Virus record (IMG/VR): IMGVR_UViG_2939521961_000018
DNA: 64,000 nucleotides
DNA from: a virus
Taxonomy: Duplodnaviria > Heunggongvirae > Uroviricota > Caudoviricetes
Strand: one strand, 5' to 3'
Part shown: positions 7,095 to 54,269 of the stretch, in pieces
Layout: the number at the start of each line of letters is the position of its first letter
Position numbering within the stretch: the first letter of the stretch is position 1
The notes under the pieces: generated by a model
Seen by the model: only the letters and a program-made list of their open reading frames with translations
Told to the model about the DNA's origin: nothing
The model's database searches: none
Made by a program: the position numbers and the translations under genes

Positions 7095-7304
7095 CAGCTT
7101 TTCCTTACAGAGGGTGAATAAAAAAGCCGGTACCCACAAAAGTGGATACCGGCAGGTACAAAACAGCATGGTCAGATAAAGTGGTTTTTCCCGGACATAA
7201 ATGTTTCCCCTCTCTCATCCGCCAGAGAAGTATCAGTCCGTTGTGTGCAATTCCGTTCTGCATGATGAAGAGATTCAGCTGCCTTTTCGCAGACCATTAA
7301 CCAC

Positions 7305-7350
7305 TATAAACGATCGATAGTAACGATCGATACCTGTTTTATCGATCGTT
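7305..7350. promoter_or_regulatory. agn43 phase-variation switch: three Dam GATC sites within the OxyR binding region
   Basis: GATC at about 7312, 7325 and 7344 in AAACGATCGATAGTAACGATCGATACCTGTTTTATCGATCG, 150-200 bp upstream of the flu start. Confidence 0.7.
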
Positions 7351-29322: not shown

Positions 29323-29595
29323 TTACCTCGCCGTCAGTTGTTTTGATTTCCGGTAGCCTGCCGCGTAAATGGCTACGTTTGGCAGGCAAATACTTCCACT
29401 GCATTCATCTGCCTTCTTGCAGCGAAGGCTTCCGAGTGATGCTGCTTTATCTGCTCTGACGCAACCAGAGAGCTTTAGCGCAATTTTTCGTGCCAATCGC
29501 TGTTCTTGCATTGCCTGTTCACGTTGAGCCTGTCTGCGTGCTCTGCGGCGATTTCTGGCGTTATCGTCAGCCAGATATGTAATGACTACTGTCAT
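29323..29595 (-). CDS. N-type transcription antiterminator (P22 gp24-like)
   Basis: Arginine-rich motif NARNRRRARRQAQREQ near N-terminus; C-terminus LPNVAIYAAGYRKSKQLTAR matches recalled P22 gp24 end; lies between OL/PL and the early-left genes. Confidence 0.7.
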   Translation of the reverse strand: MTVVITYLADDNARNRRRARRQAQREQAMQEQRLARKIALKLSGCVRADKAASLGSLRCKKADECSGSICLPNVAIYAAGYRKSKQLTAR

Positions 29596-37228: not shown

Positions 37229-37871
37229 TGGCAGCAAATACCGAAATATTTGGGTAGTTGGCGATCTGCACGGATGCTACACGAACCTGATGAAAAAACT
37301 GGAGACGATAGGATTCGACACCAAAAAAGACCTGCTTATCTCGGTTGGCGATTTGGTCGATCGCGGTACAGAGAACGTCGAATGTCTGGAATTAATCACA
37401 TTCCCCTGGTTCAGAGCTGTACGTGGAAACCATGAGCAAATGATGATTGATGGCTTATCAGAGCGTGGAAACGTCAATCACTGGCTGCTTAATGGCGGTG
37501 GCTGGTTCTTTAATCTCGATTACGACAAAGAAATTCTGGCTAAAGCTCTTGCCCATAAAGCAGGTGAACTTCCGTTAATCATCGAACTGGTGAGCAAAGA
37601 TAAAAAATATGTCATCTGCCACGCCGATTATCCTTGTGACGAATACGAGTTTGGAAAGCCAGTTGATCATCAGCAGTTAATTTGGAACCGCGAACGAATC
37701 AGCAACTCACAAGACGGGATCGTGAAAGAAATCAAAGGAGCGGACATGTTCATCTTTGGTCATACGCCAGCAGTGAAACCACTCAAGTTTGCCAACCAGA
37801 TGTATATCGATACCGGCGCAGTGTTCTGCGGAAACCTCACATTGATTCATGTACAGGGAGAAGGCGCATGA
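37206..37871 (+). CDS. ninI: NinI Ser/Thr protein phosphatase
   Basis: Metallophosphatase motifs GDLHG, GDLVDRG, GNHE; start [12 protein letters not shown]. Confidence 0.85.
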
Positions 37872-38491
37872 GACTCGAAAGCGTAGCTAAATTTCATTCG
37901 CCAAAAAGCCCGATGATGAGCGACTCACCACGGGCTACGGCTTCTGACTCTCTTTCCGGTACTGATGTGATGGCTGCTATGGGGATGGCGCAATCACAAG
38001 CCGGATTCGGAATGGCTGCATTCTGCGGTAAGCATGAACTCAGCCAGAACGACAAACAAAAGGCTATCAACTATCTGATGCAATTTGCACACAAGGTATC
38101 GGGGAAATACCGTGGCGTGGCAAAGCTTGAAGGAAATACTAAGGCAAAGGTACTGCAAGTGCTCGCAACATTCGCTTATGCGGATTATTGCCGTAGTGCC
38201 GCGACGCCGGGCGCAAGATGCAGAGATTGTCACGGTACAGGCCGTGCGGTTGATATAGCAAAAACAGAGCAGTGGGGGAGAGTTGTTGAGAAAGAGTGCG
38301 GAAGATGCAAAGGCGTCGGCTATTCAAGGATGCCAGCAAGTGCCGCATATCGCGCTGTAACGATGCTAATCCCAAACCTTACTCAACCCACCTGGTCACG
38401 CACTGTTAAGCCGCTGTATGACGCTCTGGTGGTGCAATGCCACAAGGAAGAGTCAATCGCAGACAACATTTTGAACGCGGTCACACGTTAG
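37868..38491 (+). CDS. Q: Late-gene antiterminator Q (lambda Q type)
   Basis: 207 aa [29 protein letters not shown]...[12 protein letters not shown]...[10 protein letters not shown], near-identical to recalled lambda Q. Confidence 0.9.
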
Positions 38492-38533
38492 CAGCATGAT
38501 TGCCACGGATGGCAACATATTAACGGCATGATA

Positions 38534-38562
38534 TTGACTTATTGAATAAAGTTGGGTAAATT
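38534..38562 (+). promoter_or_regulatory. Late promoter PR' (with qut region)
   Basis: TTGACT-N17-TAAATT in TTGACTTATTGAATAAAGTTGGGTAAATTTGAC, as in lambda. Confidence 0.65.
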
Positions 38563-38702
38563 TGACCCAACGATGGGTTAATTCGCTCGTTGTGGTATTG
38601 AGATAAAAAGAGGCGGCGCTTACTACCGATTCCGCCCAGTTGGTCACTTCGACGTATCGTCTGGAACTCCAACCATCGCAGGCTGAGAGGTCTGCAAAAT
38701 GC

Positions 38703-38762
38703 AATCCCGAAACAGTTCGCAGGTAATAGTTAGAGCCTGCATAACGGTTTCGGGATTTTTTA
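38703..38762 (+). terminator. tR' terminator (end of the 6S-type short late transcript)
   Basis: ATCCCGAAAC...GTTTCGGGAT hairpin followed by TTTTTTAT, as in lambda. Confidence 0.6.
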
Positions 38763-38771
38763 TATCTGTGT

Positions 38772-39126
38772 AACAGGTAAGAGCATTCTCCCTTATGGGG
38801 CTTGGCTTAAATGCACCGAGTGCTCTTATCGTTGTGGCAGCACAACGATAGTTTTCGTCAGAGTTGGCGACTTTGCGGTTTTTTAGAAACTGACCACAAA
38901 GATAAATGCAAACGATGATGTTGTTCTGATGGCGGCGTAATAGCCTGTAAGTCAGCAAGGTCTTCCGACTCCTTGTAAACAAATTCGGCGCACTGGCCCG
39001 GTGTGATTAATAATGGGCACACAACAGGTAAGAGCATTAAAGAACTGGCAAAGAGCTTAACGGTCTGCGAAAGCATTTCTTAGTGGCACAACTGGCCGGT
39101 ACAACTGAGTGCTCTTTCCGGTGTGG
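38772..39126 (+). repeat. Two diverged copies of a stem-loop module (AACAGGTAAGAGCATT ... GAGTGCTCTT[AT][TC]CG[TG]TGTGG) in the late leader
   Basis: Module A 38772-38837, module B 39023-39126; in each TAAGAGCA pairs with TGCTCTTA. Confidence 0.4.
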
Positions 39127-39562
39127 TGAATGCGCAGGCTGATGCGCGCAGGAGAGCTTCGGAAGAACAAGGTGCCTGTATACAAGCCGGAGATCAGCGC
39201 CGGCCACCACAGCCAAATCCACCCAGAGCAAAACCGTTGTTCATCCTTACCATTCACTCAGTATTTTGGGCTACACCATCAGCCCATTTTTTAAAGCGTA
39301 CTTCCACCAAGAACCAGACCTAACCAACTCATTGCTGACACTCTGTGGATACGGTTGTCTAGTACGCTTTAAAAAAGAAAACCCAGCATCAATGGCTGGG
39401 CTTCGTGATATGAGCGGCATGTATTGTTGGCGCAATCCACGCCTGATTTGCTCATGAATGCGGTCACGAACAAACCCGTTACAAATCAACCGTAACCCGG
39501 ATTTGTTCAAGCGACCATATCCATAATTCCTAATTTGAACAGATCCCCTTCTGGGGTAAGAC

Positions 39563-39886
39563 ATGAAGATGCCAGAAAAACATGACCTGTTAGCCGCTAT
39601 TCTCGCGGCAAAGGAACAAGGCATCGGGGCAATCCTTGCGTTTGCAATGGCGTACCTTCGCGGCAGATATAATGGCGGTGCGTTTACAAAAACAGTAATC
39701 GACGCAACGATGTGTGCCATTATCGCCTGGTTCATTCGTGACCTTCTCGACTTCGCCGGACTAAGTAGCAATCTCGCTTATATAACGAGCGTGTTCATCG
39801 GCTACATCGGTACTGACTCGATTGGTTCGCTTATCAAACGCTTCGCTGCTAAAAAAGCCGGAGTAGAAGATGGTGGAAATCAATAA
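39563..39886 (+). CDS. S: Holin S (lambda S107/S105 type)
   Basis: [31 protein letters not shown], dual-start Met1/Met3. Confidence 0.9.
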
Positions 39887-40346
39887 TCAACGCAAGGCGT
39901 TCCTCGATATGCTGGCGTGGTCAGAGGGAACAGATAATGGACGGCAGAAAACCAGAAATCATGGTTATGACGTCATTGTTGGCGGAGAGCTATTCACTGA
40001 TTACTCCGATCATCCTCGCAAACTTGTCACGCTAAACCCAAAACTCAAATCAACAGCCGCCGGACGTTACCAGCTTCTTTCCCGTTGGTGGGATGCCTAT
40101 CGTAAGCAGCTTGGCCTGAAAGACTTCTCTCCCAAAAGCCAGGACGCTGTTGCGCTGCAGCAGATTAAAGAGCGTGGCGCTTTGCCGATGATTGATCGCG
40201 GTGATATTCGTCAGGCAATCGACCGTTGCAGCAATATCTGGGCTTCACTGCCGGGCGCTGGTTATGGTCAGTTCGAGCATAAGGCTGACAGCCTGATTGC
40301 AAAATTCAAAGAAGCGGGCGGAACGGTCAGAGAGATTGAGGTATGA
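39870..40346 (+). CDS. R: Endolysin R (lytic transglycosylase)
   Basis: 158 aa [34 protein letters not shown] matches recalled lambda R. Confidence 0.9.
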
Positions 40347-40780
40347 GCAGAGTCACCGCGATTATCTCCGCTCTGGTTATCTGCATCATCGTCTGCCTGT
40401 CATGGGCTGTTAATCATTACCGTGATAACGCCATGACCTACAAAGAGCAGCGCGATAAAGCCACATCCATCATCGCTGATATGCAGAAGCGTCAACGTGA
40501 TGTAGCAGAACTCGACGCCAGATACACAAAGGAGCTTGCTGATGCTAACGCTACTATCGAAAGCCTTCGTGCTGATGTTTCTGCTGGTCGTAAGCGCCTG
40601 CAAGTCGCCGCCACCTGTGCAAAGTCAACGACCGGAGCCAGCAGCATGGGCGATGGAGAAAGCCCAAGACTTACAGCAGATGCTGAACTCAATTATTACC
40701 GTCTCCGAAGTGGAATCGACAGGATAACCGCGCAGGTTAACTACCTGCAGGAGTACATCAGGACTCAGTGCCTGAAATAA
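40343..40780 (+). CDS. Rz: Spanin inner-membrane subunit Rz
   Basis: N-terminal TM then coiled coil; overlaps the R stop. Confidence 0.85.
40536..40727 (+). CDS. Rz1: Spanin outer-membrane lipoprotein Rz1 (embedded in +1 frame of Rz)
   Basis: Lipobox LVVSAC, proline-rich mature region; fully nested in Rz. Confidence 0.75.
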
Positions 40781-52002: not shown

Positions 52003-53421
52003 ATGCCTATTCAGCAACTTCCGCTTATGAAAGGTGTCGGCAAAGACTTTAGAAACGCCGACTATATCGACTATCTGCCAGTGAATATGTTGGCTACACC
52101 CAAAGAAATCCTGAACAGCAGCGGATATCTTCGCTCATTCCCGGGCATTGCCAAACGTTCTGATGTGAACGGCGTATCGCGAGGCGTCGAGTACAACATG
52201 GCACAGAATGCTGTTTATCGCGTGTGTGGTGGCAAACTGTATAAGGGCGAAAGTGAGGTCGGTGATGTTGCCGGAAGTGGTCGCGTATCAATGGCGCATG
52301 GTCGAACATCACAGGCGGTAGGCGTTAACGGGCAACTGGTCGAATACCGCTATGATGGCACGGTTAAAACCGTCTCAAACTGGCCTGCAGACAGCGGGTT
52401 TATGCAGTATGAGTTAGGTTCTGTTCGCGACATTACGCGTTTACGTGGGCGTTATGCGTGGTCAAAAGACGGCACTGATTCATGGTTTATCACTGACCCT
52501 GAAGACGAATCGCATCCTGACCGCTACAGCGCACAATATCGAGCCGAGTCTCAGCCTGACGGCATCATCGGCATCGGAACATGGCGAGACTTCATCGTCT
52601 GCTTTGGTTCATCGACGATTGAATATTTCTCCCTGACGGGGGCAACCACCGTTGGTGCCGCTTTGTATGTCGCACAGCCATCGCTGATGGTGCAGAAAGG
52701 CATTGCCGGGACTTACTGCAAAACGCCGTTCGCCGATTCGTATGCGTTCATCAGCAATCCGGCAACAGGTGCGCCGTCTGTGTATATCATCGGCTCCGGT
52801 CAGGTATCACCAATCGCCAGCGCGAGCATTGAGAAAATTCTTCGCTCCTACACTGCTGATGAACTGGCTGATGGTGTGATGGAATCGCTGCGATTTGATG
52901 CGCATGAACTGCTGATTATCCACCTTCCGCGCCACGTCCTCGTGTACGACGCATCTTCAAGCGCCAATGGTCCGCAATGGTGTGTGTTGAAAACAGGCCT
53001 GTATGACGATGTGTACCGCGCTATCGACTTCATTTACGAAGGAAATCAGATAACGTGCGGCGATAAGCTGGAATCGGTTACCGGGAAATTGCAGTTCGAT
53101 ATCAGCAGCCAGTATGGGCTACAGCAAGAACACCTGCTGTTTACTCCGTTGTTCAAAGCGGATAACGCCAGATGCTTTGATCTGGAGGTGGAATCATCGA
53201 CGGGTGTTGCTCAGTACGCTGACCGCCTGTTCCTCTCTGCAACCACTGACGGCATAAATTACGGGCGTGAGCAGATGATTGAGCAGAATGAACCGTTCGT
53301 TTACGACAAACGCGTTTTGTGGAAGCGAGTAGGGCGCATCAGGAAAAATGTTGGCTTCAAACTGCGCGTTATCACTAAGTCGCCTGTCACTCTGTCTGGC
53401 GCTCAGATAAGGATTGAGTAA
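52003..53421 (+). CDS. Tail hub protein (P22 gp10-like)
   Basis: 472 aa, same length and position as recalled P22 gp10. Confidence 0.55.
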
Positions 53422-54269
53422 TGGCGGATTCGAATCTCAATGTGCCGGTAATCATTCAGGCTACACGGCTCGACACATCAGTCCTTCCACGCAATATCTT
53501 CTCGCAGTCGTATCTGCTTTACGTTATCGCACAGGGTACTGATGTTGGTAATGTGGCTAACAAGGCCAACGAGGCCGGACAGGGCGCTTATGACGCACAA
53601 GTCAGGAACGATGAGCAGGATGTGATTCTCGCTGACCATGAGCAGCGAATTTCTGCTGCGGAAGCAACGCTTGTTAATCATGAGGAGCGAATCAGCCAGG
53701 CAGAATCAACTCTTCAGGAACATGAAACGCGAATCGCTCAGAATGAAAGCGATATTGCGTCGCTTGATACCAGAGTTCAGTCGCTGGAATCGCAGGTTTC
53801 AGACCATGAATCGCGCATTGATGCTCTGGAGTATGCCACTACTCGCAAGAAGTCAGAGGTTGTTTACTCTGGCGTATCTGTAACCATCCCGACAGCGCCG
53901 ACCAACCTTGTTAGCCTGCTGAAAACGCTCACGCCGTCATCAGGCTCGTTGGCACCATTCTTCGACACCGTTAACAACAAGATGGTTGTGTTCAACGAGA
54001 ACAAAACCTTGTTCTTCAAGCTGTCGATCGTCGGGACGTGGCCCAGCGGAACCGCCAACAGGTCAATGCAACTAACATTTTCCGGCTCTGTTCCTGACAC
54101 ACTGGTAAGCAGTCGCAACTCGGCGACAACGACCGATAACATCCTGTTAGCTACGTTCTTCAGCGTGGATAAAGACGGCTTTCTTGCCACAAATGGCAGC
54201 ACGTTAACCATTCAGTCAAATGGTGCGGCGTTTACTGCCACAACCATCAAGATAATCGCGGAGCAGTAA
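53421..54269 (+). CDS. Tail needle (P22 gp26 / Sf6 needle type)
   Basis: Trimeric coiled-coil heptads ([44 protein letters not shown]) plus C-terminal knob; 282 aa. Confidence 0.6.

Follow-up and report, generated by a model that had tools for sequence, protein, structure and literature searches.

Transfer-messenger RNA (tmRNA, or SsrA) is considered a bacterial RNA with two halves that work together, either within a single molecule or as two tightly paired pieces. Host tmRNA is required by a number of phages, among them lambda-P22 hybrids and Mu. The element described here is a phage RNA with likeness to the mRNA-like half. It is located in a viral stretch of 64,000 nucleotides (nt), IMG/VR record IMGVR_UViG_2939521961_000018, which as a whole is referred to as the window. 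Within it, the late leader between the terminator tR′ and the lysis gene S contains a conserved non-coding core of approximately 175 nt, flanked by two copies of a stem-loop module. The core carries a tag-like reading frame without a start codon, followed by two pseudoknots. Judged from its sequence, it probably derives from the mRNA-like half of tmRNA and stands outside that family as defined.

The tmRNA database papers list phage ssrA genes only in mycobacteriophages and Bacillus phage G, along with the ‘TLD-only’ tmRNA (TLD, tRNA-like domain) of mycobacteriophage DS6A (PMC4131195, PMC11915505). This TLD-only form is reported to act as an inhibitor of tmRNA. A survey of 2022 counted the ARAGORN-detectable tmRNAs of phages; the core is beyond the reach of such a survey because ARAGORN does not detect it. 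No prior description was found in the incomplete full-text literature under the tag peptides, under ‘tmRNA-like’ with ‘bacteriophage’ or under the phage genera concerned. A tag-coding half without the tRNA-like half, present in hundreds of phages, would represent either an unrecognised phage tampering with ribosome rescue or a template usable in trans. It also allows a test of whether a phage supplies part of tmRNA function itself.

A conserved core with a start-less frame between two copies of one stem

The original prediction, made from the letters alone, described two diverged stem-loop copies at 38772-38837 and 39023-39126, about 185 bp apart, and both the copies and the distance are borne out. 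The sequence AACAGGTAAGAGCATT has exactly two occurrences, at 38772-38787 and 39023-39038; by our own arithmetic, the chance expectation of an exact 16-mer pair within 1.1 kb is about 1e-4. The 3′ arms (38815-38837 and 39104-39126) share 83% identity, and each is complementary to its own 5′ arm, forming inverted repeats. The spacing between the modules is 185 nt (38838-39022). This ‘spacer’, which the prediction passed over, is the most conserved thing in the leader. The features of the core and its flanks are as follows, in order of position.

38768-38837, + strand: module 1, with 5′ arm 38768-38790, 3′ arm 38815-38837 and insert CUCCCUUAUGGGGCUUGGCUUAAAUGCACC (from repeats, and covariation on 33 arm pairs)
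38827-38850, + strand: small hairpin UAUCGUUGUG-GCAG-CACAACGAUA, then the invariant GUUUUCG (from an inverted repeat; terminator-like in the scan)
38847-39022, + strand: conserved non-coding core, about 175 nt, GAUAGUUUUCG through the second pseudoknot (from database matches, nhmmer and alignment A2)
38902-38907, + strand: AUAAAU, the resume-codon context (A-6 U-5 A-4), at the end of an A-rich stretch (invariant or near-invariant in A2)
38908-38943, + strand: tag-like frame GCA AAC GAU GAU GUU GUU CUG AUG GCG GCG (ANDDVVLMAA), then UAA UAG (from frame analysis)
38926-38955, + strand: P5-like stem CUGA (38926-38929) / UCAG (38952-38955) with an inner GGC/GCC hairpin and the stops inside (from covariation)
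38956-38988, + strand: pseudoknot a, CAAGG (38956-38960) / CCUUG (38971-38975), with loop pairing CCGA (38965-38968) / UCGG (38985-38988) (from covariation)
38989-39018, + strand: pseudoknot b, CGCAC (38989-38993) / GUGUG (39001-39005) and GCCC (38996-38999) / GGGC (39015-39018) (from covariation)
39018-39126, + strand: module 2, with 5′ arm 39018-39040, 3′ arm 39104-39126 and a 73-nt insert (from repeats and covariation; 100% identical to HK620)

Up to 757 phage records match a 423-nt query covering 38838-39260, most of them over the core and a few over the flanking cassettes alone. With nhmmer the core is found in 40 loci (E 1e-56 to 2e-7), and in a single copy in the window. At least nine phage families or genera carry it: Lederbergvirus (HK620), Webervirus-like Klebsiella phages, Swiduovirus, the N4-like Gamaleyavirus and Ithacavirus, Kuttervirus and Taipeivirus of the Ackermannviridae, Felixounavirus, Faunusvirus, Kyungwonvirus and a P1-like phage. 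Of 5,426 complete E. coli genomes, 137 have it too. Lytic phages have it on the strand of their tRNA genes, either preceding the cluster or within it; often it comes directly after a sigma-70-type promoter and ahead of the tRNAs. Its downstream neighbours vary and include tRNAs, terminators and structural genes on the other strand. In the records examined it is never annotated, the entry under the match being ‘none’ or scattered short hypothetical open reading frames (ORFs).

A gene carried between the modules, a moron, had been suggested for this interval. Related phages have the same non-coding core at this position and no protein gene. Mechanical ORFs of 72 amino acids (38858-39076, minus strand) and 35 amino acids (38811-38918, plus strand) do exist, but no ORF is conserved among the 30 distinct core sequences that make up alignment A2, where the longest open stretch varies in strand, frame and length. 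There are also 46 one-nucleotide indels among these homologues, and the records examined leave the stretch unannotated or give it short hypothetical ORFs. A protein-coding gene between the modules was rejected on the lack of a conserved ORF and the frequent single-nucleotide indels, and a small moron is extremely improbable.

The tag-like frame is start-less. Its codons span 38908-38937, and an in-frame UAG is located 8 codons upstream. Twenty-one nucleotide versions of the frame encode 12 peptides, all of 10 codons, and TAA, TGA and TAG are all in use at one stop position. Codon differences in this frame are 299 synonymous versus 800 non-synonymous (27%), compared with 31/1013 and 88/968 (3% and 8%) in the shifted frames. 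In alleles that begin GCU AAU GAU..., codons 1 and 2 differ synonymously and an out-of-frame AUG is lost, while U-5 and A-4 are kept. The AUAAAU context has the variants GUAAAU, AUAACU and AUAAUC, and one GCU AAU-type allele has AUAAUC where E. coli ssrA has AUAGUC. Peptides found elsewhere include ANEEMYLAVA, ANDNVFLAVA, ANDNTFLAVA, ANDEQFLAVA, ANDDLMLMAA, ANDDLMMVAA and ANDSEMRMVA. Conserved in them are the AND/E start, a hydrophobic-A/V-A end and, where the E. coli tag has Tyr7, a residue that is aromatic or hydrophobic. We take the AND start, the Tyr7 position and the C-terminal end to be the SspB and ClpX determinants of the E. coli SsrA tag. The substitution pattern indicates that the start-less frame is under coding-type selection. 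The AUG that is invariant in AUAAAUGCA was considered as a start codon and rejected, as its frame varies from 5 to 9 codons with 3% synonymous change and Ackermannviridae-type alleles lack the AUG.

The structure of the core is conserved along with the frame. At its 5′ edge GUUUUCG (38851-38857) is invariant in all families. It is paired with the upstream stem arm in some loci and lies at about +1 to +10 of the RNA in promoter-driven loci; the AG/UUUU here presumably fits an RNase E site. The P5-like stem pairs tag codons 7-8 with sequence 3′ of the stops and occurs in the covarying versions CUGG/CCAG, CUGA/UCAG, UGAU/AUCA, UGGC/GCCA and AUGG/CCAU. In pseudoknot a, both-sided changes are seen in 7 of 9 pairs, and pseudoknot b has an invariant AUUAAUAA between its two pairings. 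Across the core helices in A2, 92.1% of cells are paired, versus 33-46% with slid partners. Sixteen pairs are changed on both sides and the covariation score is 0.373 versus 0.158 in shuffles, none of 500 reaching it. These covariation counts, and those for the stems below, are raw counts in which the kinship of the sequences is ignored. A blind RNAalifold run also returns one stem from each of the two pseudoknots (the CAAGG/CCUUG stem of a and the second stem of b). The core holds two covariation-supported pseudoknots 3′ of the frame.

The stems were compared on 38 distinct arm pairs collected from the fetched loci, of which 33 were used, with the inserts replaced by GAAA before alignment (A3). 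Each module is a copy of a single conserved stem, interrupted and about 20 bp long, that retains a U.U mismatch and a bulged A. The 20-pair stem has 86.8% of cells paired versus 37-58% with a slid partner, and 12 pairs with changes on both sides, a count reached by 0 of 500 shuffles. It has the length of about two helical turns, and the conservation by selection, that define the lambda-type leader stem. The outer stem exists as CACAAC/GUUGUG, CUAUC/GAUAG or CGAAAUC/GUUUUCG, and N4-like phages have the same stem design in a different sequence (CUAUCAAUGAGUACAC/GUGUACUCUUUGAUAG). The inserts (26-101 nt) are mutually unrelated and are shuffled among positions and phages. Locus L092 has the window's module 2 insert upstream of the core. 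That of module 1 sits in a different stem in FelixO1, downstream of the core, and in a P1-like phage it lies behind tRNAs, 660 nt away. The small hairpin at 38827-38850, which re-uses the outer part of the module 1 3′ arm, is specific to the allele group of the window.

The arrangement of stem, core and stem is widespread. HK620 has the same architecture, with a stem-loop on either side of the core, and such pairs of stem-loops recur in many phages, even with wholly different stem sequence (locus L090 and Shigella phage B2). Lambda has a single module copy directly 3′ of tR′, and only a shrunken remnant is left of the cassette after it. In L090, an IMG/VR contig, the stem-loops on either side of the core, GAGUGUC.../GGCACUC and GAGAGCC.../GGCUCUC, are unrelated in sequence. 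The unit also has CTCTATGGTATGTTTA as a direct repeat on both sides, as if it had been inserted or duplicated, and a protein gene begins directly after it.

Likeness to tmRNA and the possible function of the core

The frame of the core has no start codon, opens on an Ala codon and is preceded by U-5 and A-4, as at the resume site of tmRNA. The roles of U85 and A86 in resumption are established for tmRNA. The stop codons lie in a stem that corresponds to helix 5 and are followed by pseudoknots, two rather than three. An invariant 14-mer, AUAAAUGCAAACGA, is identical to the in-frame resume site of ARAGORN-called tmRNA genes in at least five unrelated GTDB genomes, and among the matches listed three of these genes are permuted (L173, L192 and L201). 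Side by side with E. coli ssrA, GCAAACGA and UAAUA.CCUG are held in common, the resume context of ssrA being AUAGUC. In the Rfam scan of the leader the best match is tmRNA_permuted (26.3 bits, E 0.0036) and the second is beta_tmRNA (17.2 bits). The N4-like phage vB_EcoP_PE007 scores 31 and 18.6 bits with the same models. These partial matches cover the tag and the first pseudoknot.

On this likeness, the best reading of the core is a processed, tmRNA-derived ‘coding piece’ that would be released by RNase III and decoded on rescued ribosomes. It is given a rough probability of 0.5. Q-modified polymerase would transcribe the array from the late promoter PR′, and transcripts that read through tR′ as far as the terminator at 39267-39292 may contribute as well. 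RNase III would then cleave the long flanking stems and release the core. Daniels et al. 1988 (reference 49 of PMC7547250) reportedly placed RNase III sites in lambda late RNA. These sites presumably lie in the hairpin that follows tR′. After release, the core could pair its two ends with each other, since module 1's 3′ arm and module 2's 5′ arm are complementary (the inverted repeat contains the outer part). Because of its coding-type conservation, the frame is predicted to be decoded on rescued ribosomes, so that the proteins of stalled ribosomes would receive a degradation tag specified by the phage. The alanyl-acceptor would have to come from elsewhere, the candidates being host tmRNA-SmpB or, in other phages, anticodon-less tRNA-like elements.

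A number of results weigh against this reading. The main weakness is that we know of no established route by which such a frame is decoded without an acceptor domain. ARAGORN found no tRNA-like domain in the window, in 14 other loci or anywhere in the HK620 genome, and Rfam searches of the window and HK620 at E up to 10 also gave none. A pattern search of our own (T arm with a 7-bp acceptor stem) returned nothing in the window. The core accordingly has none of the acceptor stem with G3.U70, the T arm and the 3′ CCA of a tRNA-like domain. The unit of Shigella phage B2, which runs from stem-loop to core to terminator, is apparently also without a T arm. The Rfam scores are far below the gathering scores of the two families (26.3-31 versus 47, and 17.2-18.6 versus 84), and E<0.1 is reached by the ANDDVVLMAA allele group alone. 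Homology to tmRNA rests on shared features, without statistical support. Candidate helices for a first pseudoknot, PK1 (GUUUU/GAAAC and CUUUG/CAAAG), are 86-91% paired with almost no both-sided change. Lastly, pairing of the core with host ssrA gives no signal (-94.7 kcal/mol versus -98 +/- 7.6 for shuffles).

A more specific form of the proposal is that the core is a stand-alone tmRNA coding piece decoded in trans, with the acceptor supplied by host tmRNA-SmpB or by the anticodon-less tRNA-like RNAs of the array, and that the tag of rescued proteins is thereby rewritten. This is put forward tentatively and would at present be doubtful. If true, it would amount to split trans-translation, a topology not seen before, and its carriers would be HK620-type prophages of enterohaemorrhagic E. 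coli (EHEC) O26 and P1-like, FelixO1, Vi1-like, N4-like and T1-like phages.

Unconventional tRNA-like elements accompany the core in some of these phages and are candidate partners. They come from the ad hoc T-arm and acceptor pattern and are uncalled by ARAGORN. In PE007 (L008, about 1938-2005) an anticodon-less element consists of UCCGGUG, 32 nt, a T arm and CGCCGGA-A-CCA, 440 nt after the start of the core. The element of FelixO1 (L005, 1693-1775) lies 90 nt past the core and its stem-loop and has C1-G72, G2-C71, G3.U70, A73 and an encoded CCA, which is the alanine identity set. It has no D arm, its anticodon is UCU, its variable region is long and it scores 31.7 bits with the Rfam tRNA model; the related locus L120 has an ordinary tRNA-Arg(UCU) at the same place. 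Ackermannviridae have several such elements. One lies about 190 nt upstream of the core, in L006 (Det7, about 1360-1427), L131 (cp21) and L282. It has acceptor, D and T arms, no anticodon arm and no encoded CCA, and its acceptor shows compensatory changes (GGUGAGG/CCUCGCC versus GGCGAAG/CUUCGCC). A 128-nt element ending in GGGUUCGACUCCCUAAAGCGGC-U-CCA is located downstream in this family.

Several further signs of a complete or host-derived tmRNA were considered and rejected. The core is not taken to be an ssrA fragment left by integration at host ssrA: the 3′ end of ssrA is absent, the core is not at the attachment site, it occurs in lytic phages, and no cross-match with the host ssrA gene was found by blastn in E. 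coli genomes. The ‘CCACCA’ at 39204-39209, a possible tRNA-like 3′ end, is the 3′ strand of a GUGGUG helix that is kept around unrelated interiors. The ‘GGGGCUU’ in the module 1 insert was rejected as the 5′ acceptor strand of a tmRNA on account of the position of this insert in FelixO1, downstream of the core, and in the P1-like phage, 660 nt off. A piece resembling the 3′ end of ssrA, AGCUCCACGAAAC, is limited to a few closely similar loci (L027, L321 and L037) and is not general. In L027 and L037 the segment ends ...C(G)U(C/U)AGCUCCACGAAACG about 260 nt past the tag, like the E. coli ssrA 3′ end CCAGCUCCACCA; outside these two it was seen in L321, which is near-identical to L027.

The core may instead act without being translated, as a mimic or decoy of the tmRNA body that titrates factors and so damps or redirects trans-translation during phage growth. 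Ribosomal protein S1, RNase R and the SmpB tail on the ribosome are candidate targets for such a decoy. The tmRNA-like sequence and structure, and the failure to find a tRNA-like domain, would suit this explanation, and half a tmRNA has a phage precedent in DS6A, which is its mirror image (PMC4131195, PMC11915505). A decoy needs RNA features and no peptide, yet the synonymous third-position changes follow the codon frame. The constant length of 10 codons, the interchangeable stops and the retention of the AND.. start and the hydrophobic-A/V-A end also speak against it, and it is considered unlikely.

The late leader as a cassette slot in a mosaic prophage

The 0.8-kb stretch from tR′ to S is an array of non-coding RNA cassettes, of the kind kept by other enterobacterial phages in or beside their tRNA clusters. 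Its landmarks and the neighbouring genes are as follows.

37868-38491, + strand: Q, antiterminator gene, 207 amino acids (ORF; PHROG 127, E 6.6e-83; 97.3% nt identity to lambda Q)
38534-38562, + strand: PR′ late promoter, hexamers TTGACT and TAAATT with a 17-nt spacer (consensus scan; stretch 95-100% identical to lambda)
38703-38765, + strand: tR′ terminator, hairpin AATCCCGAAACAGTT/AACGGTTTCGGGATT with a T run, end of the 6S leader RNA (inverted repeat; identical to lambda tR′)
39122-39211, + strand: third stem-enclosed cassette (‘part C’), closing helix UGUGGUG (39122-39128) / CACCACA (39205-39211) (sequence reading)
39267-39292, + strand: second intrinsic terminator, 3′ of the RNA array (scan; ‘tQ’ in the HK620 annotation at the homologous place)
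39378-39404, − strand: convergent terminator-like hairpin with a T run (scan; shares a perfect 16-nt inverted repeat, 39287-39302/39361-39376)
39563-39886, + strand: S, lysis cassette (98.5% nt identity to lambda)
39870-40346, + strand: R, lysis cassette (95.0% nt identity to lambda)
40343-40780, + strand: Rz, lysis cassette (nt identity 64.7% to lambda Rz and 63.7% to HK620 Rz)

Part C has two interior hairpins, GCGCA-GGCUGA-UGCGC and GCCGG-AGAUCAGCG-CCGGC. L125 and L127 retain the closing helix GUGGUG/CACCAC but enclose unrelated interiors with it, and the CCGG/CCGG hairpin covaries (CAGG/CCUG, UCGG/CCGA). Past the array, the hairpins at 39267-39292 (+) and 39404-39378 (−) are convergent, their T and A runs forming the perfect 16-nt inverted repeat. 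A weak isrJ-like match (16 bits) lies at 39378-39452 on the minus strand. The convergent terminators and this match suggest that an antisense transcript may come in from the S side.

The leader had been named as an interval in which lambdoid phages carry additional genes, and it is indeed a cassette slot. In Sf6, whose annotation describes the region as similar to phage 21, the same slot holds tRNA-Asn and tRNA-Thr, and in 933W it holds ileZ-argN-argO. Neither the stems nor the core are present in Sf6 or 933W. No tRNA gene was called by ARAGORN in the 64-kb window, which lacks the tRNA genes, and also the tRNA-like elements, that go with the core elsewhere. The core in the late leader of EHEC O26:H11 prophages occupies the slot that in Stx phages is filled by tRNA genes preceding stx.

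In a sliding comparison, the best match of 38480-38770 (the 3′ end of Q, PR′, the 6S leader and tR′) is lambda, at 95-100%. The stretch at about 38900-39040 best matches the lytic N4-like phage PE007, also at 95-100%, and 39000-39570 best matches HK620, at 100%. Neither lambda nor HK620 matches module 1 or the 5′ part of the core. The joints of this mosaic, from lambda-like to the N4-like-phage allele to HK620-like, coincide with the conserved stems. The original prediction had considered the duplicated structure a recombination scar. The placing of recombination joints at the modules agrees with this; a one-off scar does not, as flanking stem-loops recur in many phages. From the position of the joints, the conserved stems appear to act as portable homology at which cassette exchange between phages occurs. 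They would offer a concrete mechanism for exchange between temperate and lytic phages.

The position of the joints can also be read to mean that the core is a relic, a decaying fragment of a complete phage tmRNA/tRNA-cluster cassette brought in by recombination at the stems, which would be functionless scars in the lysogen. The window has no accompanying tRNA genes or tRNA-like elements, and what lambda has is no more than a shrunken remnant. However, the frame and all five helices are intact in the window, and its allele is separated from the HK620 allele by compensatory changes while being 95-100% identical to that of a lytic N4-like phage. In addition, 137 E. coli genomes retain the core, as do HK620-type phages that have no tRNA gene. 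A relic is judged improbable.

Another explanation, put forward by the original prediction, is a leader that acts in cis on the stability or processing of the late transcript, on translation of S and downstream genes, or on termination between the two terminators. The RNA element itself is well founded, its structure being kept by compensatory changes; nothing was found to indicate an effect on late-gene translation. The location in the late leader between two terminators fits a cis role, the long stems would suit RNase III, and the core of lytic phages comes first after the promoter, before the tRNAs. A gene-specific role is made unlikely by the very different things that the core precedes (tRNAs, terminators and structural genes on the opposite strand). 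The end of the core is moreover 540 nt upstream of S, and the conserved start-less coding frame is left unexplained. A cis-acting leader is therefore regarded as rather improbable, and the released and decoded coding piece is retained as the preferred reading.

The window is a 99.9% match to the P22-like prophage of E. coli O26:H11 strains. The Q-S interval thus has a close known counterpart, as the original prediction allowed; the accompanying alternative, that no duplication would be present, does not apply. The duplication is real and is not private to the prophage of the window, since the O26:H11 prophages and HK620 have the same architecture. The host element is an HK620/Sf6-type (P22-like) prophage with Q, PR′, tR′, S and R of lambda type. 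The close likeness of the late genes to lambda holds for Q, S, R and the promoter-terminator stretch but fails for Rz. As Rz has about 64% identity versus 95-99% for S and R, a further mosaic joint is placed, from these identities, inside or just before Rz. A +1-frame ORF embedded in Rz (40536-40727), with a lipobox-like LVVSAC, is probably Rz1.

The virion genes are, as had been described, Sf6-like, with 96.6-97.5% identity to HK620 and Sf6. The N gene (29323-29595, minus strand) was said to end like P22 gp24. This likeness is restricted to the C-terminal half, at 57%, and the gene as a whole is the HK620 N, at 97.8% identity. The combination of a lambda-type late region with Sf6/HK620-type virion genes is confirmed. 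On these comparisons the mosaic is real and corresponds to the known HK620 arrangement rather than a new one, because HK620 itself joins lambda-type Q, S and R to P22-type virion genes.

Two insertion elements are indicated elsewhere in the window. The Rfam ALIL pseudoknot (121.5 bits, 49132-49248, +), the frameshift element of an IS3-family insertion sequence, lies within the P22-like virion block. HK620 coverage of 41500-53500 is just 75%, which would fit an insertion, and such an insertion may have crippled the prophage. An Rfam match to IS102 RNA (70.4 bits, 7113-7349, −) indicates an IS903/IS102-type element far upstream of the late region.

Comparison with known systems

The core shares with tmRNA, as represented by E. 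coli ssrA, the A-6 U-5 A-4 context followed by an Ala codon, and a start-less tag of 10 codons with an AND.. start, a hydrophobic-A-A/V-A end and often double stops. In both, the stop codon lies inside the P5 stem and H-type pseudoknots follow. Unlike tmRNA, the core has no acceptor stem, T arm or CCA end. It has two pseudoknots after the tag and no convincing PK1, its length is about 175 nt versus 363, and it is embedded in a longer transcript between putative processing stems.

Two-piece (permuted) tmRNA is found in alpha- and beta-proteobacteria, cyanobacteria and marine phages. It resembles the core in having a separate RNA with the tag frame and pseudoknots, and a long helix just upstream of the tag region; the best partial Rfam matches and the shared 14-mer resume site are also to this form. 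In two-piece tmRNA the coding piece has the 5′ acceptor strand at its start, and its pairing partner is an acceptor piece whose gene lies just upstream. In contrast, the upstream helix of the core encloses an unrelated, hypervariable insert and no acceptor strand. ARAGORN, which is able to detect permuted forms, calls none in the window or in the other core loci tested. The TLD-only RNA of DS6A is likewise a single tmRNA half in a phage, but it is the opposite half, a tRNA-like domain with no tag frame, and the host and phage groups differ.

The flanking modules and their location also have described counterparts. The lambda hairpin that follows tR′ (locus L004) is built from the same arms, CACAACAGGUAAGAGCAUU...CAGUGCUCUUUCCGUUGUG, and occupies the corresponding position; it is the single lambda copy, its insert is 43 nt long and no tag core accompanies it, whereas the window has two copies. 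The tRNA genes in the late leaders of lambdoid phages (tRNA-Asn/Thr in Sf6 and phage 21, ileZ-argN-argO in 933W) share with the core the slot from tR′ to the first late gene, which in the window is without a tRNA gene. The promoter-early stem-loop (PeSL) cassettes of T4-type phages were reportedly described by Arbiol, Comeau and Krisch in 2010. They differ from the modules in sequence and in flanking protein genes rather than RNA cassettes, and no promoter was found in the stems of the modules by scan. The likeness is one of analogy only: in both systems variable cassettes lie between repeated stem-loops, and these are where the joints of shuffled modules fall.

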